NCBI GenBank assembly: GCA_029856125.1
Contig: JAHQWJ010000123.1
Location: 1 to 19,343 of the forward strand
Length of the DNA stretch: 19,343 nt
Direction: 5' to 3'
Source: Promethearchaeia archaeon
GTDB lineage: Archaea > Asgardarchaeota > Lokiarchaeia > Sigyniarchaeales > SOKP01
Under the pieces are notes generated by a model. It searched no databases. It saw only the letters and a list, made by a program, of their open reading frames with translations, and was not told where the DNA came from. A program made the translations under genes and the position numbers. Below, in pieces: positions 6,780 to 19,343 of this stretch. Within the stretch, counting starts at the first letter, position 1. Each line of letters begins with the position of its first letter.

Positions 6780-7484
6780 CTATATTCCTAAGTAAACAGT
6801 TTTAATTCGGGGTTCTTTTTCAAGTTCTTCTCTTGTACCTCTCATTTCTATTTTACCTTCTTCTAATAAATGTATATTTTCACTAACCTCCATAGCCAGC
6901 ACAGCATCCTGTTCGACTAATAATGTTGTAGTCCCCTCTTTTTTAATTTGATTTACAGCTACAAATATTTTATCTTTAATTTTGGGGGCTAATCCTAATG
7001 AAGGTTCATCTAAGAGAAGTAATTTTGGATTTGCCATAATCGCTCTTGCAATTGCTAACATTTGTTGTTCTCCTCCACTTAGCGTTCCAGCTCTTTGTTT
7101 CCTTCTTTCTCTAAGGCGAGGGAAAAGTTCAAAGACAAATTCTAACAGTTCATCATACTTTTTCTTATCTTTTAAACCATAGGCTCCCATTTCAATATTT
7201 TCCAGTACTGTCATATCGTAAAATAACCGGCGCCTTTCGGGACAATGAGCAATTCCTCTTTTAGCAATTTTATGAGCTTTCATATCGTCTATTCTTTCAC
7301 CTAAAAACTCAATTTTTCCTCTATCTGGTTCTTCCAATCCAGAAATAACTCGGAGCAATGTGGATTTTCCTGCTCCATTAGGGCCTATAACAGCGTCAAG
7401 AGCTCCTTCCTCTATCTTCAAATTAATTTCTTCCAAAGCTCTAGCACTCCCATAATAATGATAAATTTTTTTCATTTCAAGCAA
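6780..7484 (-). CDS. livF: LIV-type ABC transporter ATP-binding subunit
   Basis: GPNGAGKS, LSGGEQQMLAIARA, LLLLDEPSLGLAP, VEQ. GGAGG precedes the TTG start, which overlaps the livG stop. Confidence 0.93.
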   Translation of the reverse strand: MLEMKKIYHYYGSARALEEINLKIEEGALDAVIGPNGAGKSTLLRVISGLEEPDRGKIEFLGERIDDMKAHKIAKRGIAHCPERRRLFYDMTVLENIEMGAYGLKDKKKYDELLEFVFELFPRLRERRKQRAGTLSGGEQQMLAIARAIMANPKLLLLDEPSLGLAPKIKDKIFVAVNQIKKEGTTTLLVEQDAVLAMEVSENIHLLEEGKIEMRGTREELEKEPRIKTVYLGI

Positions 7485-8220
7485 GTTCTTCTCCTCCTTT
7501 TCCTAAATATGCTTCTAATACAATTTTATTGTTAGCAACCTCTTCTGGAGGTCCCTCGGTTATGTATTTTCCCTGATGCATCGCAATTACCCGTGGAACT
7601 AAGTGCATCAATTCACGTAAAACATGTCCAGTCATAAAAACAGATACTCCATCCGCATGTAATTTTATTATCAATTCTGTAATACCTTGTTGTTCTTCGT
7701 GAGAAAGACCACTAAATGGTTCGTCTAATAGTAGAAGTTGAGGATTAGTTCCTAAAGCTTTCCCAATTTGTAATTTCCTCAGATCTCCATGAGGTAGTAC
7801 TATAGGAGGTAGTCTCGCTTTGTCAACAAGTCCAACTGCTGCCAAAATTGAGCTTGCTGATTCGTCAATTCCGTATTCTTTAGATAATTTCCTACCTCGT
7901 GGTGATAAACATGAAACAGATATATTTTCTAATAGAGTCATCAAGCGAAATGATCTTACAAGTTGAAAAGTCCTTGCAATTCCTAAATTCACTATTTGAT
8001 AAGGTTTCATTCCTGTTATATCGCGTCCATCAAATCGAATTGTCCCAGAATTTGGTTTTTCAAATCCTGAAATTAGATTAAACAGCGTAGTTTTCCCCGC
8101 TCCATTTGGACCAATTAAACCCGTAAATTCACCGCGAGTCACTTCAAAACTAAAATCATTTACAGCCGTTAAACCGCTATATTTTTTGGTTAAATTCCTA
8201 GCCTCTAAAATTACACCCAT
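7477..8220 (-). CDS. livG: LIV-type ABC transporter ATP-binding subunit
   Basis: GLIGPNGAGKTTLFN, GIARTFQ, LLLLDEP, C-terminal V.EAYLG. Confidence 0.92.
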   Translation of the reverse strand: MGVILEARNLTKKYSGLTAVNDFSFEVTRGEFTGLIGPNGAGKTTLFNLISGFEKPNSGTIRFDGRDITGMKPYQIVNLGIARTFQLVRSFRLMTLLENISVSCLSPRGRKLSKEYGIDESASSILAAVGLVDKARLPPIVLPHGDLRKLQIGKALGTNPQLLLLDEPFSGLSHEEQQGITELIIKLHADGVSVFMTGHVLRELMHLVPRVIAMHQGKYITEGPPEEVANNKIVLEAYLGKGGEELA

Positions 8221-8264
8221 AATTTAGTTCACATTTATTTATTTTCCTTTTTTTAAGATTTTAC

Positions 8265-9266
8265 TTACCTCCCTAATAATACATCCCAAAGATCTTTGAG
8301 ACGTTCTAAAGCAGGTCTTAGAAGACCCATATCAGCGAATCTAATTATAAGGATTAAAATTATAGAGAAGATAAATACCGGATCAAATACATCAATTAAA
8401 ATAGCGTTAAGCCCGAAGAAAATAAAGGACCCAAGCGCAGAACCGCCAATTGTTGCTAGGCCCCCAATAGTAGTCATAATTATCGCATAAAATGAATAAA
8501 GGGGTTGAAAAAGCATAGGAGTAACACTTCTAAATCTCATAGCTAATAAACCACCAGCTATCCCGGCAAAAAAACCACTTATCATAAACGCAATAACTTT
8601 ATATTTTGTTATATTAATACCTGAAGCCTCTGCTCCAGTCTCATCATCGCGAATAGATTTAAAAATAGTACCAATGTTAGATTTACTAATGTATATCATT
8701 ATTAACATTGAGACTACCATAATAAAAGTATAAACATAGAATATTTCTACGACATCTGTAGAGATAGGAGGGACTCTATCTATTCCTGGTGTGCCAAAAA
8801 AGATCCAATTAGTAGCGATTGCTAATTTCTCGTTCATAAATACAGCCATAATAAAAGTACTTAGTGCCATTGTTCCTAATGCTAAATACGGTCCTTTTAA
8901 TCTTAAAGTAATTATTCCGATGATAAAGGCAACTACTACACTTGTGAGCGCCCCCAAAATCAGCGAAATTTGCCATGAAACATCGTAGAAACGAATAAGA
9001 TATGCTGTAATATAACCTCCCATCCCCAAGAAAATCGCATGTCCAAAACTTACTTGACCTACAAAGCCTGCTAAGAAATTCCAGCTTGATGCAAAAATAG
9101 CAAATACTGTTATTGTAACAAATATTCCTAGATAATATGGATTCTGAGTTAGTAATGGTAAAGCTAAGAGTCCAATTAAACAAATTAATGTTAAACCACC
9201 TTTGAACGTCCGTACCCAAGATATTAAACGACGAGTGTAATATGTTGGTTCCTTTAATTTTGCCAT
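8265..9266 (-). CDS. livM: LIV-type ABC transporter permease
   Basis: GQVSFGHAIFLG, LRLKGPYLALGT, SIRDDETGAEASGIN, multiple TM segments. Confidence 0.92.
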   Translation of the reverse strand: MAKLKEPTYYTRRLISWVRTFKGGLTLICLIGLLALPLLTQNPYYLGIFVTITVFAIFASSWNFLAGFVGQVSFGHAIFLGMGGYITAYLIRFYDVSWQISLILGALTSVVVAFIIGIITLRLKGPYLALGTMALSTFIMAVFMNEKLAIATNWIFFGTPGIDRVPPISTDVVEIFYVYTFIMVVSMLIMIYISKSNIGTIFKSIRDDETGAEASGINITKYKVIAFMISGFFAGIAGGLLAMRFRSVTPMLFQPLYSFYAIIMTTIGGLATIGGSALGSFIFFGLNAILIDVFDPVFIFSIILILIIRFADMGLLRPALERLKDLWDVLLGR

Positions 9267-9313
9267 TTTATTAATAAACTCCCTTATTTAATGATGGTAT
9301 ATTTTTTTATAAA

Positions 9314-10183
9314 TTAATCTATCTCTTTTTTTCCAAATATTCCTTGAGGTCTTACTACAAGCACTATTATAATGATTATTCCTGGAATCAACGGTGCAAA
9401 AGAGGGATCTAACACATAATTACAGATTGAAGTCGCATACCCAAGAATGTATGATCCCACTACACTCCCGGATAGACTCCCCATACCTCCAAGAATGACT
9501 ACAGCAAATGATTCTGTTAAGATACTCCAGCCTACATAAGGAGATATATATTGTCTTGGAACATTTAGAATTGCTGCAAATCCTGCGAGTGAAGCGGAGA
9601 GCATAACGACATACATAAGGATTCTGTCTGCATTTATACCCATGAGCATAGCCGCTTCTCGATCTTGGGCAACAGCTCTAATCGATTTTCCAAGTTTTGT
9701 TTTTCCGATAAATAAACTAACTAAAACTACAGTAATTACTGAAAGAATTATAATTAAAATATTCTGGGCACCAAATGTAACATCAAAGAGAGTAATGCTA
9801 CCTTCTATTAATGGATCCATCAATAAGGGCGATCCTATTCCAACTATTACTAAAATTAAAGCCTGAGCGAAGAAGGCAATGGCAAAAGTGATCATTAATG
9901 CCCCTATAGGAGATTTTAATAAAGGTTTAATACACAATAGGTATGAAGCAGCCCCGATAATCGATGCAGAAATCAATACAATGACGATTCCCCAAAAAAG
10001 ACCAAGACTCGCATAAACGACAACCCAGTAAAAAATATAGCCTGAAAGTAAATAAAATGCCCCATGAGCTAAGTTCATAACTCCACCTACTCCATAAACT
10101 AAAGAAAGCCCAATCGCAAGTAGAGAAATAACTGCTCCATGCACGGTACCGAAAATTATTATCTGAGGTATCTGAAATATCAA
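9314..10183 (-). CDS. livH: LIV-type ABC transporter permease
   Basis: AIGLSLVYGVGGVMNLAHG, TKLGKSIRAVAQDREAAMLMGIN, FAVVILGGMGS, RPQGIFG. Confidence 0.93.
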   Translation of the reverse strand: MIFQIPQIIIFGTVHGAVISLLAIGLSLVYGVGGVMNLAHGAFYLLSGYIFYWVVVYASLGLFWGIVIVLISASIIGAASYLLCIKPLLKSPIGALMITFAIAFFAQALILVIVGIGSPLLMDPLIEGSITLFDVTFGAQNILIIILSVITVVLVSLFIGKTKLGKSIRAVAQDREAAMLMGINADRILMYVVMLSASLAGFAAILNVPRQYISPYVGWSILTESFAVVILGGMGSLSGSVVGSYILGYATSICNYVLDPSFAPLIPGIIIIIVLVVRPQGIFGKKEID

Positions 10184-10377
10184 ATTAAATCAATCTCTTC
10201 AAAATAATATTATTTTTTTTTTTTATTTATCAGTTTTAATATTCTATTACTATCTTATATTATTTAAAAATAATCACAAATTTTTCTCTTAACCATCTTT
10301 ACAAATTAGTAATTAGCACTAAATTTAAGAAAATAAGAAAAAAAAAAGTTTATTTATATTTTAAATTTTGTTTTGTC

Positions 10378-11835
10378 CTAATTTATTCCCCACGTAGGCA
10401 ATAGAATAGTATTTGAACCTGCAAGCGAATCTGGATATACTCCTAACGGATAGTTTGACCAATCTCCATATGGACCTGCGTTATATCCGAGCGTATAAAA
10501 GGTGCTTTCTCCAGTAGGTATGCATTTTAGCTCTCCATCTTGCCATTGAGCAAATCTTGTCGTACCAAATGGCCAACCTTCCATGACATCGTGTCTTGTG
10601 TTTCCTAAATCTCCTGTTGTGTAAGCTAATTGTGGAGCCGAAACACCTCTGTCAGCAGTTAAATACGTAGTTCCGTTAAGTGTTTCTAGTTTTGCAATAA
10701 TATCTAACTCTTCAAATGATTGAGTTTCATTAATTGCCCATATTAACGTACCTACTGCATCATAAGTACCTGGTGCCGTATAGATCGTAGGACCATAACC
10801 AAATCTTGTGTTAAAATCAGAGTAAAATTGAGCGGAATAAGATGTCACATTCAATCCAGGAGTAAGCGTAGTCAATAACATTTGGTAATTACACGCTCCG
10901 CCCGTAGTTGCCCAATAATCTGTCATCTGTCCTTCAACATCTATGCCAAATACTGCACATTGAGGTTGTGTTATTCCGTATTGTTTCATCATTTGAATTC
11001 CAGTATCGCCTGAAACTACAGGTATAGCAATTTGAGCTCCATTTGATTCGACTAAATCCCAATAGGTTTCAAAATCAGGATTGGTAATATCGTAAGCTAC
11101 TTCGTACACTATACTGATATTAAGGGCACCTTCAAGGGCGTTGAAAAGATCTGACATACCCACAGTCCAATCAAGCTGCTCTCGAAGTATAGCTACGTTT
11201 CTCACTCTTCTTGATAAATTAGCTTCCATCTCATTTATTAGATGAGCCAATCCCTGTAAAATTTCAAAAGCAAGTTTACTACTTGAAATCGGTGTTTGTC
11301 TGAAGTAGTATTTATATCTTTCATAATTATCCTTAACATTTATACAGAATTCGTCAGTTGCAGAACCACAACCAAAGAACATTAAATCTTCGTCCATTGC
11401 TACTTCAACCATCGCTCTTGTAACTTCGGTTCTAAATCCACCAAATAGATATCTTGCTTCATCTACATAAATTAAGTTTTCGGCCGCAGCCAATCCGGTT
11501 GATATAGGTAACTGGGGATCATGTTCGTTTGTGTTTCGAGCTTTTACCGCAACATAATAGCGAGTGCCATTAACTACAATACCATTATCCTTGGTATTTA
11601 TATCGTATGCTGCTAACCAAGCTCCATTCCAACCTCCAGCACCTTGGATACCCTGTAAACCACCAAGATACCCGCATTTAATCCATTGATCGGAAGGTAT
11701 ACCTGAAACTCCTGGAGTCTCCCATCCTGCTTCTTGAGCTTGTGAAGTAAAAAACCAGACACCCACTCCAATCCCCGCGCCTGCGATTACTACTACTAGT
11801 ACTATCGCCACTATTCTTTTTGTGTTTTTTTCCAT
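10378..11835 (-). CDS. LivK-like ABC substrate-binding protein with an N-terminal membrane anchor
   Basis: Single N-terminal hydrophobic helix, GAWLAAYDIN, GGFRTEV, YYFR, VAILREQLDW, N-glycosylation sequons; first gene of the liv operon. ATG at 11835 follows AGTGAT. Confidence 0.88.
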   Translation of the reverse strand: MEKNTKRIVAIVLVVVIAGAGIGVGVWFFTSQAQEAGWETPGVSGIPSDQWIKCGYLGGLQGIQGAGGWNGAWLAAYDINTKDNGIVVNGTRYYVAVKARNTNEHDPQLPISTGLAAAENLIYVDEARYLFGGFRTEVTRAMVEVAMDEDLMFFGCGSATDEFCINVKDNYERYKYYFRQTPISSSKLAFEILQGLAHLINEMEANLSRRVRNVAILREQLDWTVGMSDLFNALEGALNISIVYEVAYDITNPDFETYWDLVESNGAQIAIPVVSGDTGIQMMKQYGITQPQCAVFGIDVEGQMTDYWATTGGACNYQMLLTTLTPGLNVTSYSAQFYSDFNTRFGYGPTIYTAPGTYDAVGTLIWAINETQSFEELDIIAKLETLNGTTYLTADRGVSAPQLAYTTGDLGNTRHDVMEGWPFGTTRFAQWQDGELKCIPTGESTFYTLGYNAGPYGDWSNYPLGVYPDSLAGSNTILLPTWGIN

Positions 11836-11910
11836 TTTTTTAATCACTTTATTTTTGTTAACTTTTTTTTTGACAAATTTAACTAACTAATTCTATTTCT
11901 GATAAACATA

Positions 11911-12027: not shown

Positions 12028-12093
12028 AGCATAAAGGAAGCAGTCCCTTTGTCAACCTTTCACTATGATTTTTTGAAAGGTCTCATCCATGCT
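12028..12093 (-). other. Candidate eukaryote/Lokiarchaeota-type SECIS element in the 3' UTR
   Basis: Minus strand AGCAU-GG-AUGA-GACCUUUCA-AAAAAUCAUAG-UGAAAGGUU-GA-C-AAAGGGA-CUGC-UUCCUUU-AUGCU. AUGA/GA core, 9-bp upper helix, A-rich apical loop, closing AGCAU/AUGCU helix. Confidence 0.7.
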
Positions 12094-12105
12094 TTTTGTT
12101 TTTTT

Positions 12106-12549
12106 TTACTTAAAATAGTGAGCAAAAGTTTTGTGTTCTTTTCCGTATTTTTTCATGATTACTCTCTTGAACATTCCAAAATCGAGTCGTTCTCTCATGT
12201 TATCAGCTCATCAATCGGCGTGGACTATAAGAGTTATGTCGCTGTTCGAATAAAGATTGAAGTTAACATCGTCCAGAAGAGGCATAAACTCTTTGTTCGG
12301 TCCATAGGCATTACATGCACAATCTTCGTAAATCGCATTCTTTTGTGGGTTCCAGATTAATTGGAGATAGCTCTTAATCAGTCCTTTATACATTGGAAAC
12401 GGTGAAAGCTTGGGATTGTTAAGGAGCTGTCTATCTATCGTAGCCAACGCTTCAATTATCGTTCCTTCTTCCTCAATAGATACTTCGTACTCAATTCCGT
12501 TTGCGAGCTCTTTTTCAGGTCCAAAAATTGTTAGTTTAATTTTTTTAAT
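12106..12549 (-). CDS. Candidate ubiquitin-like (MoaD/ThiS/SAMP beta-grasp) selenoprotein with tandem UGA-UGA, 147 aa if both are read through
   Basis: AGGTGA RBS then ATT at 12549. (M)KKIKLTIFGPEKELANGIEYEVSIEEEGTIIEALATID...EDCAC...NFNLYSNSDITLIVHAD-TGA-TGA-ADNMRERLDFGMFKRVIMKKYGKEHKTFAHYFK-TAA. TGAs at 12211-12213 and 12208-12210. The coding region 12211..12549 is well supported; readthrough is inferred. Confidence 0.7.
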
Positions 12550-12594
12550 CTAATATCACCTTTTTAAAAAAGAAATGAATGAAACGAATTAAGC

Positions 12595-13044
12595 TTATAA
12601 TAACCCTTTTTCCTTTAGAAGTCCGGGTAAATCTTTCTTTAATGCGAATGAAGTAATAAATTTCTTTGTACCATCAACGACAACGCAATTGCCATTTAAA
12701 TTAAGTTTACGAGCATCGTCAGAATCTAAGTCTTTTGTTTCAAACCTTATGTGTTTCATATAAGGGCTAAGTGCCGAAAATACAAGGTTCATAAATTGAG
12801 ACCAAACGCATTCGCAAGCGTTCAGAGGAACATATACATCTACGGATAGTTTATTCGTTTCTATATTTGCTGTCTCTTTCAAATTAATTTCGTGAGTATT
12901 AGGCGATTCTTTTGAAGTTGAGCCCTGACAACAAGAATCTGATGAACCACAACAAGAATTTGACGTACCACAGCTTGATTCCTCTAAGTTTATTTGACTA
13001 TTTTGGTTTTCGCTAACCGATATTTTTATTTCTTCTTTTTCCAT
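12595..13044 (-). CDS. Cys-rich protein with a thioredoxin-like/ArsD-like C-terminal domain, putative metalloid chaperone
   Basis: SSCGTSNSCCGSSDSCCQG low-complexity arm, then VDVYVPLNACEC-helix-strand...CVVVDG-helix; located in the acr3 operon. Confidence 0.6.
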   Translation of the reverse strand: MEKEEIKISVSENQNSQINLEESSCGTSNSCCGSSDSCCQGSTSKESPNTHEINLKETANIETNKLSVDVYVPLNACECVWSQFMNLVFSALSPYMKHIRFETKDLDSDDARKLNLNGNCVVVDGTKKFITSFALKKDLPGLLKEKGLL

Positions 13045-13104
13045 TTTTTCTACCTTTTAATTAATATTTTATAATTCCAAATTTGAGTAAATTTTGATAC
13101 ATTT

Positions 13105-13467
13105 TTAACCGCAGCAATTTGAAGTTGTTTCACTTTCATCTTCTGGACCACAAGCACAGCTATTTATGTCTTGATTTCCAGATTTGGCATTTTTTGCTTT
13201 TGCTCTCGCGTTCCATAAACAACCGCACCCTTTCTTTTCCATCATAATGATCGCTTCAACGGGACAATTCCTCTTACAAGCACTACACTCAGTACATAGT
13301 TCAGGATTTTTAATTTCGTATTTCCCAGAATCTGTTTGTTGTGGAAGCCCAAAGGGACACACTTCTGCACATAAACCGCATTTATTGCATAAATTTTCAT
13401 TTATAAATATTTTAAAATCTTTTATAGATAATTTGTCTAAACGAGCTTTAAATTCTGCTTCAGTCAT
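13105..13467 (-). CDS. HgcB-like 2[4Fe-4S] ferredoxin with a Cys-rich tail
   Basis: CNKCGLCAEVCP and CTECSACKRNCP, then GCGCLW, SCACG and terminal NCCG; directly follows the hgcA-like gene; GAGGT RBS. Confidence 0.85.
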   Translation of the reverse strand: MTEAEFKARLDKLSIKDFKIFINENLCNKCGLCAEVCPFGLPQQTDSGKYEIKNPELCTECSACKRNCPVEAIIMMEKKGCGCLWNARAKAKNAKSGNQDINSCACGPEDESETTSNCCG

Positions 13468-13520
13468 TATACATACCTCTTAAATATCAATTTCTTTTTA
13501 ATTTTTTGTATTATTTTTTA

Positions 13521-15188
13521 TTAGAAAAAAATGATTCCAATTACTAATGAAATCAAACTTATAGTTAATAAAACTTTATTTAAAATCTTAAAACGGGGGT
13601 ACTCTTCTTGTATTTCACTAGGACTAGTAGCCATCGTATATCCACTTAACGACATGGTTGAAAAAAATGAAACCCAAAGGAAAAAACTTAAGTTAAAAAG
13701 CGTGAAAATTATCGATTTGTGAAATAAAAAAGAGATTATTCCTAAAATAAAAATATTCAAAGTTCCAAAGAAGATTCCCTTAAGAATAAATCGACGAGTG
13801 AAATTTGCTAGTGGATATGTAAAAGTTATGATAAAATTTGCCGTAACTATCCAGAGTAATAATTCGCCAACCCACCATAATTTAGCGAATAAATTAAGAG
13901 AGTTAAGTATAAGGAATACAAGGAATAAACCTATAAGTGGTAACAAGAAAATCTTTCTTAATAAAAATGTTGTATGCGTGATAAAACCACGAAACCGATG
14001 TTTTAGGGTGAATTTCGCAAGTTTCATTCTATCGGGTTTTCGAGCAGGCCTTTTTTCAAGGAACTCGGGTAAATCTTTAGACCAAACAGGTCCATAAACA
14101 ACTCGAAAAGGAAAATCTTTAGATTTTTTCTGCAATTCTGGAGTAGCTACTCCTCCTGCAGATAATTGTGGGAGAATTAAAGTTTTTTTATTCGTTAAAC
14201 TTTCAATACCAGTAGCTTCAACTGCCTCTACTAGTTGGTTATTTCCAAAATCATTTCCTCTCGCAGCACACCACACATTAATACCGTTAGAGTCAACACA
14301 TAATACCCATGCATCAATACCCTTAAGATCTCTCATTACTTTAATGTAAGTGAATTCATAGTTAGCAGTCACTATTATAGGAGAGGATTCAGTAGGATTT
14401 CCAGATTTGTAAATACCGGGATCTATTGGAACGAGATCAATTTGTCCTGTATAAATGCAGCGATATATTCTTAACTGCGATTTTATTCCTTTGAATCGTT
14501 TTGGTCTAGGTTGATAATATCCTGGCTCAGTGATTCCTTCATCGTCGTTCTTTATGAGTTCGAGAGCTTGAATTGTTCCGTGTTTCCAGTCTTTATTACC
14601 TTTGATTTTGAATCCAATTGGTTCAATATAGGTGAAGAACCATTTTAATAGAAAAGTACTCCGTAATTTTAGACGCCTAAGTTTCTTTTTATATCTCCAT
14701 CTTTTTATTTTAAAGATCATTTTCCAAAAACCACTTGGAACAAATTCTGCAGCAATTATTAACTTACCACTTGGTTTTAATACTTTCCAAACATTTCTAA
14801 GGAAGATTTGTTGTTCAAAAGGTCGAAGTTCTGAAAGCATAAACGTGCTAATTACTAAATCTTGAGAATTAGCTTCCACAGGCATGTTGGAAAATGATCC
14901 AGTTTGATATAAGAGCGTTCCTTCCTTCAAATCTGAAGGATAATTCTGCATTGCATGATTAATCATCTGAAAATTTATATCTATCGCCGTAACATTATTT
15001 CCTTTTAACGCCATTTGAGAGGCGAGGCTTCCAGTCCCACATCCAACTTCTAAGATCGATTTAGAGGTACCAATTTTATCAAGTACCCATTCTCTAACGC
15101 TTAAATTTACACCTTTAGTAAGTGCTGTGAATTTAGAATCATAACTATCGGGCTCTTGTTCGAGTTTACGCATGTATACTACGGCCAT
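13521..15188 (-). CDS. Fusion of a class I SAM methyltransferase, an HgcA-like (CdhD-family) corrinoid-binding domain and a C-terminal transmembrane domain
   Basis: N-term ILEVGCGTG, VTAIDIN, VLKPSGKLII. Middle PGIYKSGNP..SPIIVTANY, AWVLCVDSNGINVWCAARG, LILPQLSAGGV, FRVVYGPV. About 5 TM helices with MSLSGYTMATSPSEIQEE. ATG at 15188 preferred over TTG at 15197. Confidence 0.88.
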   Translation of the reverse strand: MAVVYMRKLEQEPDSYDSKFTALTKGVNLSVREWVLDKIGTSKSILEVGCGTGSLASQMALKGNNVTAIDINFQMINHAMQNYPSDLKEGTLLYQTGSFSNMPVEANSQDLVISTFMLSELRPFEQQIFLRNVWKVLKPSGKLIIAAEFVPSGFWKMIFKIKRWRYKKKLRRLKLRSTFLLKWFFTYIEPIGFKIKGNKDWKHGTIQALELIKNDDEGITEPGYYQPRPKRFKGIKSQLRIYRCIYTGQIDLVPIDPGIYKSGNPTESSPIIVTANYEFTYIKVMRDLKGIDAWVLCVDSNGINVWCAARGNDFGNNQLVEAVEATGIESLTNKKTLILPQLSAGGVATPELQKKSKDFPFRVVYGPVWSKDLPEFLEKRPARKPDRMKLAKFTLKHRFRGFITHTTFLLRKIFLLPLIGLFLVFLILNSLNLFAKLWWVGELLLWIVTANFIITFTYPLANFTRRFILKGIFFGTLNIFILGIISFLFHKSIIFTLFNLSFFLWVSFFSTMSLSGYTMATSPSEIQEEYPRFKILNKVLLTISLISLVIGIIFF

Positions 15189-15225
15189 TAATATCAATCC
15201 TATTTAGTTTTTTAATACTTTTTTA

Positions 15226-16344
15226 TTACTTTGAATTAGATTTCCAAAACCCTCGTTTCCCAAGGAATTTTCCAAGATATACCATTGCAAGCATAACAGG
15301 CACTTCCCAAAATAAGCCCATTGTAGTTCCTAAAGCCGCTACGGACCCAACACCATACATTGCGACAGCTGTTGCGATAGCAATTTCAAAGTGACTTGAT
15401 GAGCCGATAATTATGGTAATAATCGCTTCTTTATACTTCATTTTGAAGATCTTAGTAATAAAAACATTGTAAACAACCACTATTACAAAACCTACTAAGA
15501 GTGGAATTGAGATTAGTAGCAACAAATCAGGATTATTTATAAGAACATCGCCGTTTAGGGAAAATAAAACCACTAAAGTTGTCAATAAAGCAACAATTGA
15601 AATTTTTCCTACAAATGGTTTATAGCTATCATTAAACCACGATAATCCTTTCGAAGTGATGATTAATCTCTTACTTACTATCCCTAAAAATAACGGAATC
15701 CCAATGAAGAATATTAAAGAGATTAACAGCAACCATGGATCAACTATAATCCCAGGCGTGAGAATATTTTGAATACCTGTTAATAAAGAAACCATTCCTA
15801 CGTACAAAAAGATTATTGTAATCGTATTTAAGCTTGTATTTACTACATTTTGCTCCTGATTACCCTTCGCCATCCACCCCCAAACTAACACCATAGCCGT
15901 ACAAGGCGAGCTTGATAGTAAAATTATCGCAACTTTTAGTTGTTGTATAGATTCAGTTGTACCCGGTAGAAATATATTAATCATTGCCAAACCTACAAAA
16001 GGAGCTATGAGCCAATTAGAAATTAGTGTTAAGATTATAGGTTTTGGATTTTTACGTAGTTTTTTCAATTCTGATGCTTGTAGATTTAACATCGCAGGGT
16101 ACATCATTAAAAATAAACAAATTCCAATTGGTATAGAAATACCTCCAATTTGCAAAGAATTTATTGCTTGACTTATCTCAGGTATAAACTGGGAGAGCGC
16201 GATACCTATGATGATACAGAGTACCACCCATATAGGGAGAAGCTTTTCGAAGTAGTTAATCTTTCTTGATTTTTGTTTTGCTTCTTCTGAATTATTGCTG
16301 TTGTCTAATATCTTATTTTCAATATTTTCTTCAACCATAATCAT
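15226..16344 (-). CDS. acr3: ACR3-family arsenite efflux transporter
   Basis: LFLMMYP, NWLIAPF, PCTAMVLVW, SSHFEIAIATA, EVPVML; about 10 TM. Start is ATG 16344 or 16338. Confidence 0.95.
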   Translation of the reverse strand: MIMVEENIENKILDNSNNSEEAKQKSRKINYFEKLLPIWVVLCIIIGIALSQFIPEISQAINSLQIGGISIPIGICLFLMMYPAMLNLQASELKKLRKNPKPIILTLISNWLIAPFVGLAMINIFLPGTTESIQQLKVAIILLSSSPCTAMVLVWGWMAKGNQEQNVVNTSLNTITIIFLYVGMVSLLTGIQNILTPGIIVDPWLLLISLIFFIGIPLFLGIVSKRLIITSKGLSWFNDSYKPFVGKISIVALLTTLVVLFSLNGDVLINNPDLLLLISIPLLVGFVIVVVYNVFITKIFKMKYKEAIITIIIGSSSHFEIAIATAVAMYGVGSVAALGTTMGLFWEVPVMLAMVYLGKFLGKRGFWKSNSK

Positions 16345-16396
16345 CAATTAATTTTTGAATTTTCTTTTCTAACTCTATATTCATTTTTAATTTTGG

Positions 16397-16429
16397 TTAT
16401 AAAGTTCATGTTCTTTATACATGAAACTT
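16397..16429. promoter_or_regulatory. acr3 TATA box overlapped by an inverted repeat, candidate ArsR operator
   Basis: TTCATGT-N7-ACATGAA at 16405-16425, extendable to 16402-16429 with one bulge; minus-strand TTTATAA at 16397-16403. Confidence 0.55.
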
Positions 16430-16449
16430 GAGATATAATATTATTAGTT

Positions 16450-16516
16450 AAATTTAAGGTTATCGATTTGAGTAAATATGGGGCTCTAAATCCTATAAAT
16501 TTATATTTATCGATTT
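16450..16516 (+). repeat. Imperfect 20-bp direct repeat upstream of arsR
   Basis: AAATTTAAGGTTATCGATTT (16450-16469) and AAATTTATATTTATCGATTT (16497-16516), 17/20 identical. Confidence 0.55.
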
Positions 16517-16525
16517 ATTCATTAC

Positions 16526-16954
16526 ATGTATACAAGAGATATTTTTGAAAATTGGCACGATATGAAGCAAAAAAGAGCTCAAGAAATTAAGAAGATGTTG
16601 TGTACCTGTAAAGATTGCTCAGATTCAAATCCTGATTTCGATAACTTACTAAAATTGGGTAAAATTTTAGAAGAGAATAGGAATTTAGATGCCATTGAAA
16701 GATTTACATCTGCGATTGCATCAAAAGAGCGACTAATTATTATTACTGCTTTAAAAGAACGGGATATGTGCGTTTGTGAGTTAGAAACTATATTGAATAA
16801 ATCACAATCAACAATTTCTCACCATTTAAGAAAGTTAGCTGCTGCGGGGTTAATTCAAGGATATAAAAAGCAGAAATTCACCTTCTACCACCTATTTAAA
16901 GAAGAATTGAAGCAGAACTTAACAACGTTTAATCAAAATTTAGCTGTAGAATGA
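16526..16954 (+). CDS. arsR: ArsR/SmtB-family metalloregulator
   Basis: RLIIITAL..RDMCVCELETILNKSQSTISHHLRKL...GLI (alpha3 CVC site plus HTH); divergent from acr3. Confidence 0.92.
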   Translation: MYTRDIFENWHDMKQKRAQEIKKMLCTCKDCSDSNPDFDNLLKLGKILEENRNLDAIERFTSAIASKERLIIITALKERDMCVCELETILNKSQSTISHHLRKLAAAGLIQGYKKQKFTFYHLFKEELKQNLTTFNQNLAVE

Positions 16955-17117
16955 ATTTATTCTAACCGTTTTGAGTGGAATACCTCAAGGAAGTATCATT
17001 ACGCCTAAAAATTAATAATCTATAAATATTAAATTTAATAGCTAAAAAGGACATTTCGATAGTAATTAGAATTTTAATAAATTGTAAAAATACACCTAAA
17101 TAAAGAGGAAACATAAA

Positions 17118-17366
17118 ATGGCTCCACTACCGGTTCCAGACAACGAAGAATCAATGGCAGTATGTCGTAGATTCTGTGGTCCTTGTCCTTCTTTCAAACC
17201 AAATAAACTCAACGAGTATGAACCGCATGCACTCTTTTGTGCACGAGGAAAATCTCAAAAACCAATGTCTGAAATTGAAAACAAAGGTTGTAGTTGTTTT
17301 GGATGTGATTTGTTCCCAAAGTATCAATTAGAGAAAGGATATTTCTGTATGCCTGATAAAATTTAG
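17118..17366 (+). CDS. Small Cys-rich protein, DUF2769-like
   Basis: C..CPSF...LFCARGKS...GCSCFGC...YQLEKGYFC; GAGG RBS upstream and a T-tract after the stop. Confidence 0.75.
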   Translation: MAPLPVPDNEESMAVCRRFCGPCPSFKPNKLNEYEPHALFCARGKSQKPMSEIENKGCSCFGCDLFPKYQLEKGYFCMPDKI

Positions 17367-17590: not shown

Positions 17591-18868
17591 ATGGAAGAGA
17601 AAAAAGACGATTTGAAATTTTCTAAATTTTATCGATTAATCGCAGCAAATGAAATGGATATTGATAGGGAGGAGATTTTTTATCGTGAAAAATATAACGA
17701 TATAATAAATTATTTGAAAATTGTTTTAACAAATGACGAGGAATCAGTTGCTCAGAGTTATAATAAGTTCATTCACCCTAAAGGTGCGATTTTGATAAAA
17801 GTTAATCCTGGATCTGATATCGTAGATTATTTAAAATTAATATCTAAAAATTATTATTTAAATTTCTTCGAGTTGAATCATGAGGAAATCGTAAAGGCTC
17901 CTGACGACTTTATTTCTAATTTTATTGACATTTTAGAGAATATAATAGAACTGGCGCTAAAGAATATAGAAAATGAAACAAATAACAATGAAAAATCTCA
18001 AACAAATGATCACGATCTTGAACAATCTAAAATAAAGGGATTATTAGTTATAGACCAACAGAAATTTTCCGGTATTAACTTAAATGGGAAAAATTTATTA
18101 GAGCTTTTTATGGTATCATATAAGAATAGGGCAAGTCTTGAAAAAGATGGATTAATAATAATCTGGATAAATAATACAATGAAGGAAATCAAAAAAAGTT
18201 CGCAATTGATTTTTGATGTATTTGATCTCTTCATCAAAGTTCCAATTTTAGATAAGGCAGAAAGAGAGATGATATTTAAAGCTTTTTCTGAAAAAAATCC
18301 GAAAATTGTGTTTGATATCAAGACCTTAGTAGATTACACAGCAACTTGGGAGGTAAAAGACTTAATTCAGCTATTAAGAATAGGGATATTTAAACATTTT
18401 CTCAATTCTGAACTAAATGAGTCAAGTAATGAAATTACTGATGGCTTGATTAATTTAATTGAATCAGGAGAATATATCCCTACTACACCTGAGTTGAAAC
18501 GAAATATAGAAAACTCAGAATCAGACTTCTACAAACATGATGAATTTTCTAGTAAAAATTATATGTATGGAAGAAATACAGAAAGTAGAAACATTTATGC
18601 TCAAAATTTAAGCAGCGAAATTAAAGAGGAAAGATTTACAGATTTTATGCTAAATCAATTGTACGAAAACGCAGTATCAAAAAATTACAGCGAGCTTGTG
18701 CTGATAATTGATAAATTAAACAATAACGAGAATTTAGAAGAAATTGAGAGAAAAATATTGGCAAAATATGCATTTGTACTAAACGATAGTCCAAAGATGG
18801 CTCAAATTAATTTAGAAAAAGCAAAGAAACGTATCGATAATTTAAAGAGAGCGTTTGGAAACTATTAA
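17591..18868 (+). CDS. Degenerate, probably inactive classic-clade AAA+ ATPase-like protein
   Basis: PKGAILIKVNPGSD (decayed Walker A), LLVIDQ (Walker B), IIIWINN (sensor 1), FDLFIKVPILDKAEREMIF and DIKTLVDYTATWEVKDLIQL (lid). Confidence 0.65.
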   Translation: MEEKKDDLKFSKFYRLIAANEMDIDREEIFYREKYNDIINYLKIVLTNDEESVAQSYNKFIHPKGAILIKVNPGSDIVDYLKLISKNYYLNFFELNHEEIVKAPDDFISNFIDILENIIELALKNIENETNNNEKSQTNDHDLEQSKIKGLLVIDQQKFSGINLNGKNLLELFMVSYKNRASLEKDGLIIIWINNTMKEIKKSSQLIFDVFDLFIKVPILDKAEREMIFKAFSEKNPKIVFDIKTLVDYTATWEVKDLIQLLRIGIFKHFLNSELNESSNEITDGLINLIESGEYIPTTPELKRNIENSESDFYKHDEFSSKNYMYGRNTESRNIYAQNLSSEIKEERFTDFMLNQLYENAVSKNYSELVLIIDKLNNNENLEEIERKILAKYAFVLNDSPKMAQINLEKAKKRIDNLKRAFGNY

Positions 18869-18888
18869 GTAAGTAGGTGAGATAAAAG

Positions 18889-19343
18889 ACGGCTTTTTCC
18901 AGTAAAAAAAACACTATTAACACCTCAGATAAATCATTAATCGAGACTGGTACCTACATACGCAAGGTTATATTAGAGAATTTTTTATCTTTCCAAAGGG
19001 ATGAAGTAAATTTTTCAACCGAAAAAAATAAGGGTATCCCTCGTTTTGTTTTGATAATTGGCCCTAACTGGAGCGGTAAGACTTCAATTTTTCAAGCTAT
19101 TAAATTTGCTTTAGGTAGTAACGAAAGAGATGAGAGATATAAGAAATGGTCTAATTTTATAAGAAACAACCAAGCACACGCTATGGTAGAGCTTCATATT
19201 CAATATCATACAGAAATTATTAAAATTCGTAGAACTGTTGTAAAAGGGAAATCTCCATTTTTTGAATTACAACTTGATAAGGACACAGAATTCAAGAAAG
19301 CTCACGTAACTGAAGTTCAAAAACTAGTCTCCAAGTTAGATAT
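18889..19343 (+). CDS. SMC/Rad50-family ATPase, N-terminal part (partial; SMC5/6-like appearance)
   Basis: YIRKVILENFLSF, LIIGPNWSGKTSIFQAIKFALG, SNFIRNNQAHAMVEL, IKIRRTV. Open to the window end. In-frame TAA at 18883-18885; AGGTGA RBS at 18875-18880 points to ACG at 18889. Confidence 0.85.

Follow-up and report, generated by a model that had tools for sequence, protein, structure and literature searches.

In the mercury methylation system HgcAB, S-adenosylmethionine (SAM) is the methyl donor to a Cys-ligated cob(I)alamin (PMC11588087), and the cysteines of HgcB are required for mercury methylation. Linkage of hgcAB to ars genes is already known, and what HgcAB-type proteins do natively is still debated. 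A cobalamin-dependent, ArsM-independent precedent for arsenic methylation comes from methanoarchaea, where methylcobalamin and MtaA methylate arsenic in a side reaction of MtaA (reviewed in PMC13262295). As for selenoproteins, seven Asgard families were described by Huang et al. 2024 (PMC11227280), who searched with known families only. The locus analyzed here lies on contig JAHQWJ010000123.1, the whole of which (19.3 kb) is hereafter called the window; the host genome, G000, is a 3.69-Mb lokiarchaeial assembly of 99% completeness, and the nearest relatives of its proteins carry the labels Lokiarchaeota/Promethearchaeota. On its minus strand the window carries an operon composed of acr3, a gene fusing a CpaM-like methyltransferase to an HgcA-like domain (hereafter the fusion), an HgcB-like ferredoxin gene, a gene for a Cys-rich thioredoxin-like (Trx-like) protein and a beta-grasp gene with tandem UGA codons followed by a selenocysteine (Sec) insertion sequence (SECIS). 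The five genes are separated by gaps of 37, 53, 60 and 45 nt and diverge from plus-strand arsR and DUF2769 genes. The original prediction, made from the DNA letters alone, had placed all seven genes, their orientations and the gaps correctly. Comparison with relatives suggests an ars operon with a modular slot, for which we cautiously favour cobamide-dependent methylation of As(III), and indicates that the last gene very probably encodes a genuine Sec-Sec selenoprotein.

Two modules and a slot shared with arsM

We surveyed 161 Lokiarchaeia genomes (relatives carry labels of the form G0xx); these are kin, so that locus and genome counts do not represent independent events. The fusion gene is present in 112 of the 161 and also in Thorarchaeia, and more distant fusions occur in Anaerolineae, Poribacteria and Desulfobacteraceae. 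Both flanks are complete at 63 Lokiarchaeia fusion loci: 26 have acr3, arsR, Trx-like and UGA-UGA genes in full order, six have acr3 and arsR with part of the rest, eight have arsR only and 23 lack any ars gene, lying in a MarR or flavoprotein context. Upstream of the fusion, acr3 is found at 39/74 and arsR at 52/76 loci. Distant families keep arsR-acr3-fusion-ferredoxin (the second family is represented by G016, G018, G020 and G021), with the UGA-UGA gene mostly unlinked; two single-contig Lokiarchaeia genomes carry the arsR-acr3-fusion-ferredoxin arrangement. CVC-type ArsR precedes the fusion at five of six Thorarchaeia loci. At 12 further loci the arsR/acr3/Trx/UGA-UGA core occurs with an empty methylase slot. 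The cluster is thus made up of two modules, the acr3-Trx-UGA-UGA core and the fusion-ferredoxin pair, each occurring independently. The predicted five-gene set does recur in its full order (26/63), but the core without fusion at 12 loci and the fusion-ferredoxin pair without ars genes at 23/63 do not support one obligatory pathway.

The slot between the core genes is shared with arsM. At five loci arsM lies directly before the UGA-UGA gene, and relatives at the chromosomal site of the window read arsR/acr3/arsM/UGA-UGA at one locus at least. The landmarks of this site, conserved across the family, are an uncharacterised 425-amino-acid (aa) gene (17591-18868) and an SMC-like gene, whose beginning occupies 18868-19343 with no ATG, GTG or TTG start listed. 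In four relatives (G043, G045, G046 and G047; loci L208:1494-2620, L205, L210 and L229) the Trx-like protein is C-terminally fused to ArsM (372-375 aa), which ties it to arsenite methylation. The two methylases also occur together, as acr3-arsM-fusion-ferredoxin-Trx-UGA-UGA in G048 and as arsM-DUF166-fusion-ferredoxin in G023. The cluster in the window lacks arsC, arsA and arsM, as predicted, and relatives carry arsC (7/80 fusion loci) and arsM (two) inside theirs. The 99% complete genome of G000 gave no arsM match; four genes of the LMWP/ArsC-like kind, as well as ArsA-family ATPases, lie outside its cluster. Three LMWP/ArsC-like genes stand in tandem at C47:35193-36636 (+) of G000, unlinked to the ars operon. 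In the relatives, arsM and arsC are often found in the same genomes or clusters.

Putative arsenite-responsive regulation, and efflux

The ArsR/SmtB repressor (16526-16954, plus strand; NF033788, 70 bits against a cut-off of 55) has an As(III)-type alpha3 CVC site, MCVCEL, which together with a motif at the divergent promoter marks it as a putative As(III)-responsive ArsR. CVCE is present in 51/54 linked ArsRs. The candidate operator (16458-16479, minus strand) has the core TCA-A-ATCGA-T/A-A, found in 45/50 arsR-divergent regions, and a similar half-site is repeated at about 16503-16522. The same motif is present at loci that have no acr3, with arsR and the fusion standing face to face, and is nearly absent upstream of fusions without arsR. 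In G000, the operator is the top genome-wide match of a position weight matrix built from sequences that include close relatives. A TTCATG-N9-CATGAA palindrome at 16405 was also considered as the operator and was rejected in favour of the ATCGA motif, since it is not conserved.

Acr3 is an exporter of As(III) and Sb(III). The window protein (15226-16338, minus strand) is full-length, scores 274.5 bits, just below the TIGR00832 cut-off of 282.8, and retains the catalytic Cys (Cys147 in SSPCTAM) and both Glu motifs (SHFE and FWEVP). Conserved gene order, the operator, the CVC-type ArsR and the intact Acr3 motifs agree with the predicted ArsR-controlled arsenic operon. Acr3 had been expected to export either substrate or product. 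Export of As(III)/Sb(III) as substrate stands; export of a methylated product is less likely, because Acr3 is an established As(III)/Sb(III) exporter, and its efflux is most likely a parallel route. RNA signal comes from one run (Logan contigs), which covers 12148-12670 at low depth and says nothing on transcription level or co-transcription. A scan with sigma-70 promoter and terminator models, sigma-70 being the wrong model for archaea, gave no excess over shuffles.

The CpaM::HgcA-like fusion and its ferredoxin

The fusion (13521-15188, minus strand) is a single uninterrupted open reading frame of 555 aa, with a CpaM-like class I SAM methyltransferase at residues 1-215, an HgcA-like corrinoid domain matching PF03599 and a C-terminal transmembrane helical bundle. 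Its profile scores are all below cut-off: 139 bits for NF043040 (<180), 177 for NF040863 (<275) and 182 for NF043039 (<285). CpaM (NF043040) is nevertheless the best-matching family for the methyltransferase, which is not an ArsM, scoring 34.9 against the 263 bits of NF008823 and having C50 as its sole Cys. Features of canonical HgcA are partly present. The fusion has the corrinoid domain, the C-terminal transmembrane helices and the Co-ligating Cys, the invariant Cys307 in the cap helix NVWCAARG, a motif common to the window and 97 homologous loci, and the top fold match of its AlphaFold2 (AF2) model is the HgcAB model 9a0b. NVWCAARG passes the looser survey filter N(V/I)WCA(A/G) (PMC12484752) but not the high-stringency motif N[V/I]WC[A/S][A/G/S]GK (PMC10087281), and both the NF040863 score (177 vs 275 bits) and the phylogeny place the protein outside canonical HgcA. 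In a quick maximum likelihood tree of 98 corrinoid domains (supports by the Shimodaira-Hasegawa-like approximate likelihood ratio test, SH-aLRT), the 38 canonical AAGK HgcA sequences form one clade (99%), the Lokiarchaeia and Thorarchaeia fusions form a separate one (96%), and a third group, with NVWCGACG, stands apart.

The third group belongs to a second Lokiarchaeia corrinoid system, cpaM + hgcAB-like (L259-L276), found at 17 loci where no neighbour is conserved and ars genes are absent; it is probably what Lin et al. 2023 described as the Asgard clade of fused HgcAB. A different architecture is seen in G003 (L264:2115-4060), where methyltransferase, HgcA-like domain and ferredoxin form a 647-aa triple fusion with the cap NVWCAACG.

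The HgcB-like 2x[4Fe-4S] ferredoxin (13105-13467, minus strand) follows the fusion at 77/77 Lokiarchaeia loci. It resembles HgcB in its two CxxCxxCxxxCP clusters, its adjacency to an hgcA-type gene, its extra Cys and its terminal CC; it departs from HgcB in having CTECSAC in place of the C(M/I)ECGA motif and in scoring 46.7 against the 99 bits of NF040864. GCGC is conserved in 64/64 and the terminal CC in 51/64 members, and these residues echo the HgcB cysteines. Complex prediction for fusion residues 225-555 and the ferredoxin gave an interaction prediction score from aligned errors (ipSAE) of 0.64, compared with 0.00 for the best control, with contacts agreeing to at least 80% and partner predicted local distance difference test (pLDDT) values of at least 67; 51/78 solved pairs attain this mark, as do 2/108 mismatched ones. 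The predicted interface may stem from likeness to the HgcAB model. Because SAM methylates cob(I)alamin in HgcAB, the fused methyltransferase would most simply supply that step. The fusion had originally been read as a SAM-to-cobamide module, and a methylation module of this kind, occupying the arsM slot of relatives, is supported, with the transfer step itself drawn from HgcAB biochemistry.

The Cys-rich protein encoded next (12595-13044, minus strand) has an N-terminal SCC tail and a VPLxxCxC motif. Pfam and NCBIfam gave no match to ArsD or another family at E 0.05/0.01, and a Thioredoxin_3 lead stays below threshold (0.87/0.84, below 0.9). Of its predicted Trx/ArsD-like nature, the thioredoxin-like part is retained on the basis of this sub-threshold lead; identity with ArsD was rejected, as no profile matches.

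A probable Sec-Sec protein with a predicted beta-grasp fold

The last gene of the operon (12106-12549, minus strand) starts with ATT behind GGTGA and, with its in-frame TGA-TGA (12208-12213) read as Sec, yields a 147-aa product containing U113 and U114. Members of the family are present in 137/161 Lokiarchaeia, across all seven families. All 150 matches listed have the in-frame TGA and no other stop, and the tandem UGA-UGA is found in 93/93 distinct members examined. A SECIS lies 101-138 nt past the Sec pair in 84/91 members, compared with 5/91 and 35/1820 in controls. That of the window (12028-12092, minus strand), of the eukaryote-like lokiarchaeial type, is accompanied by a second short hairpin and consists of AUGA (12086-12083), a 9-bp helix, an AA loop (AAA in the window) and GA (12053-12052), with a fold z of -2.76; it ranks with the SECIS of the HdrA, MvhD and SelD selenoprotein genes of G000. 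Compensatory two-sided changes occur at all nine pairs of the helix, and 85% pairing contrasts with 41-54% in slid controls; relatedness inflates the shuffle control. The Sec machinery of G000 includes SepSecS and TGA-containing, Sec-type SelD, HdrA and MvhD with the same AUGA/AA/GA hairpin, and tRNA-Sec was not recovered from this genome over the Rfam cut-off or by ARAGORN.

The sequence beyond the Sec pair appears to be translated. The tail comprises 31-48 codons of conserved length and pattern (33 aa and helical in the window), and non-Sec homologues, which are found on short contigs or in contexts without ars genes, read continuously through a GC-IT/ST-tail whose Cys aligns with U113 of the window. 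U113 also aligns with the Cys of a DxGC-UU subfamily; in the CUU type both UGAs are invariant, and IT/ST/VS instead of CC stand opposite them in homologues. One could instead take the first TGA as a stop and the tail as a separate reading frame. This is disfavoured, and full read-through preferred, because 13 members have no start codon within the first seven tail codons and the non-Sec homologues read on. Codon usage in the tail leaves room for an additional signal: in the CUU subfamily the third tail codon (about 12199-12207 in the window) is GTG in 32/40 Val codons versus 12% genome-wide, and in the HADUU subfamily ATG stands at the fourth codon after UGA-UGA. It is possible that the bias marks an mRNA signal or an internal restart from which a tail peptide of 30 aa would arise; such a restart may coexist with full read-through. 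In-frame UGA with coding beyond it, a SECIS, Sec/Cys pairing and Sec machinery all point to a selenoprotein, and on these grounds we consider the Sec-Sec assignment very probable.

No Pfam or NCBIfam family matches the protein. Its AF2 model (pLDDT 94) has a predicted beta-grasp fold closest to SAMP1, CysO, MoaD and Urm1, at modest Z scores of 6-7. In place of the C-terminal Gly-Gly of SAMP, MoaD and Urm1, it has the Sec pair and the 33-aa tail; without a GG terminus and with a helical tail, activation by E1 in the usual way would be impossible. The predicted Sec-Sec ubiquitin-like gene with SECIS is in these respects supported by the Sec pair in 93/93 members, the SECIS in 84/91 and the beta-grasp model. 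The family was not found in 61 Thorarchaeia genomes searched, nor in five fusion-bearing Thorarchaeia and bacterial genomes. G000 has a second paralogue outside the ars context (C112:44045-44497, minus strand), of the DVGC-UU type and with a degenerate SECIS (UUGA). Near 46880 of the same contig (minus strand), a Prx-like gene contains UxxU (WUHYU) and is accompanied by a SECIS; its family is one of the selenoprotein families already known from Lokiarchaeia.

Accessory and flanking genes

Downstream of arsR, a DUF2769 gene (17118-17366, plus strand; PF10967, E 1.7e-12) encodes a Cys-rich small accessory protein. It is present at 16/67 fusion loci, and DUF3795 takes its place in some relatives. 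Genes for YdjM, HD-hydrolase and DUF3795 also travel frequently with these loci, DGC-domain genes flank three ars-UGA-UGA loci, and a DUF166 gene with a weak match to the selenoprotein family DfsP is inserted between arsR and acr3 at L135:4353-5099 and at 17 other loci. Beyond the SECIS (6780-11847, minus strand) lies an ordinary leucine/isoleucine/valine-type ABC transporter operon with a binding protein, two permeases and two ATPases.

Possible function of the operon

In the core module, Acr3 would pump out As(III) under the control of an As(III)-sensing ArsR, and the Trx-like and Sec-Sec beta-grasp proteins, judging from their context, may bind or reduce trivalent arsenic and pass it to partners. 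The second module, in the slot filled by arsM in some relatives, would be a self-contained cobamide methylase. By analogy with HgcAB biochemistry, the cobamide ligated by Cys307 would be reduced to Co(I) by the ferredoxin and would receive the methyl group of SAM from the fused CpaM domain; methyl-Co(III) could then pass the group on to As(III) (or Sb) bound to thiols of the Trx-like protein or to the GCGC/CC cysteines of the ferredoxin. Context also suggests the metalloid roles in this scheme: the methyl acceptor may be As, Sb, Hg or something else, and the Sec-Sec protein could act as an As(III) ligand, a reductant or a carrier. We favour As(III) methylation because of the slot shared with arsM, which is the best evidence for it, the ArsM-Trx fusion, the ArsR control in two classes and the chemical precedent. 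A fuller version, to be held more loosely, is that of a dedicated ArsR-regulated B12/Fe-S arsenite methyltransferase, a second route beside ArsM that would be widespread among Asgard archaea and rely on a new Sec-Sec beta-grasp protein as metalloid carrier.

Several observations weigh against arsenic methylation: the 23/63 fusion loci without ars genes, the 12 core loci with an empty slot, the bacterial fusions (Anaerolineae and others), which have no acr3, arsC or arsM neighbours and a single ArsR as their only ars context, and the 17 loci of the sister cpaM + hgcAB-like system, none with ars neighbours. Genome-level mutual exclusion of fusion and arsM was sought and not found, arsM occurring equally often in genomes that have the fusion (37/112) and in those that lack it (17/49; Fisher p 0.86, the genomes being kin and not independent). 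Moreover, Pseudodesulfovibrio mercurii ND132, which has canonical HgcAB, made no mono- or dimethylated arsenic (MMA or DMA) as wild type, and deletion of its hgcAB altered tolerance to As(V) but not to As(III) (bioRxiv 2022.10.17.512643). Much of this would be expected if the fusion and ferredoxin were a general SAM-to-corrinoid methyltransferase for some organic or membrane substrate, recruited beside ars genes in part of the class. The 23/63 Lokiarchaeia loci and most bacterial fusions without ars genes, a paralogous pair never found with ars genes, the lack of anti-correlation with arsM and the retention of the fusion in about 70% of Lokiarchaeia whatever the context all fit such an enzyme, a serious competitor that we nonetheless consider unlikely: the link to As-type ArsR in two classes, an operator common to acr3-less loci, the slot shared with arsM and the ArsM-Trx fusion speak against it.

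The ND132 results suit another possibility, resistance to arsenic or antimony without arsenic methylation, for instance by reducing As species at low potential, or thiolating them, at Co(I), or by repairing proteins or cofactors that arsenic has damaged, with SAM needed only for reductive reactivation as in methionine synthase. The deletion strain was more sensitive to As(V), formed no methylarsenicals and yielded a presumed thioarsenical (bioRxiv 2022.10.17.512643); arsC and flavoprotein neighbours point the same way, and the co-occurrence of arsM and fusion in one operon in G048 and G023 suggests non-redundancy. A dedicated, intact SAM-binding domain fused in all members, suggesting stoichiometric methyl flux, and the substitution of the slot by arsM make this role unlikely too. 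It is improbable that the pair truly methylates Hg(II), as a diverged hgcAB under metalloid control. The Cys cap helix, the transmembrane bundle and the HgcB-like GCGC/CC are retained, the HgcAB model is the top fold match, and canonical hgcAB often lies beside arsR or acr3; but NVWCAARG and CTECSA fail the high-stringency motifs (PMC10087281), the protein falls outside the canonical HgcA clade (99% SH-aLRT), the fused HgcAB of Pyrococcus, a relative, lacks mercury methylation activity, and no known benefit of mercury methylation explains retention in an ars operon. Least probable is that the corrinoid module dehalogenates halomethanes, a role that has been suggested for HgcAB, with an incidental operon link. 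A 2026 preprint describes HgcAB-dependent dehalogenation of CCl4 and trihalomethanes (10.64898/2026.04.26.720869), but that chemistry needs no SAM methyltransferase and leaves the ArsR/acr3/arsM context unexplained. Cobamide-dependent As(III) methylation is the reading we retain, cautiously.

The individual parts (Acr3, ArsR, CpaM and HgcAB-like proteins) have named relatives. Our literature search found no description of a CpaM::HgcA-like fusion in the arsM slot, nor any report of the Sec-Sec beta-grasp family. In 2023 Zhang et al. reportedly presented Lokiarchaeota hgcAB-like genes in ISME J as putative mercury methylators, so that the fusion gene may have been published before. A relative of HgcAB that exchanges with arsM would name a concrete substrate and a two-gene assay for the open question of native function. 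The fuller version would indicate that the HgcAB superfamily has arsenic rather than mercury as a native substrate; if the favoured reading is true, arsM-based surveys overlook a large anaerobic potential for arsenic methylation in sediments. Loose hgcA motif filters would count the abundant fusion genes as mercury methylators. The UGA-UGA gene would add a class-wide family (137/161 genomes) to the seven of Asgard archaea, with apparent tandem Sec decoding from a eukaryote-like SECIS.

Comparison with known systems

The closest kin of the fusion is the CpaM + HgcAB-like fusion protein (NF043040/NF043039), in which a methyltransferase of the same family is joined by a 2x[4Fe-4S] ferredoxin and an HgcA-like corrinoid/transmembrane protein. 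At the 17 other Lokiarchaeia loci, true members score 367 and 259 bits, and the fusion of the window falls short of both cut-offs (139 vs 180 and 182 vs 285). They combine CpaM with HgcA::HgcB, whereas the window has CpaM::HgcA with a free ferredoxin; their cap is NVWCGACG and not NVWCAARG, they belong to a separate clade, and they lie outside ars operons. HgcAB of P. mercurii ND132 (NF040863/NF040864) shares the Cys-ligated cobamide domain, the transmembrane bundle, the adjacent ferredoxin with extra Cys and terminal CC, SAM as the likely donor and frequent ArsR linkage. The window differs in its extra N-terminal SAM methyltransferase, in AARG instead of AAGK and CTECSA instead of C(M/I)ECGA, and in its position outside the canonical clade.

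With arsR-acr3-arsM(-arsC) operons the locus has in common the CVC-type ArsR, Acr3, a methylase slot, a thioredoxin-like helper and, in relatives, arsC. Unlike in those operons, the slot holds a putative B12/Fe-S enzyme whose methyltransferase, with its single C50, is not ArsM, and a Sec-Sec beta-grasp protein is added. The latter uses the AUGA/AA/GA 3-prime SECIS and the Sec machinery of known lokiarchaeial selenoproteins, but none of the seven families combines a beta-grasp with two neighbouring Sec residues (PMC11227280). Its residues 1-114 have the predicted fold of SAMP1, MoaD, CysO and Urm1 (Z 6-7) and carry reactive residues at the position of the terminal GG; the family differs in having C-U-U, U-U or U-G-U-U there, followed by a conserved helical tail. 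Finally, ArsM-independent methyl transfer from a cobamide to arsenic, as proposed for the window, is what MtaA and methylcobalamin of Methanosarcina accomplish; theirs is an unregulated side reaction of methanogenesis, whereas the window would encode a dedicated, ArsR-regulated and SAM-fed membrane enzyme.

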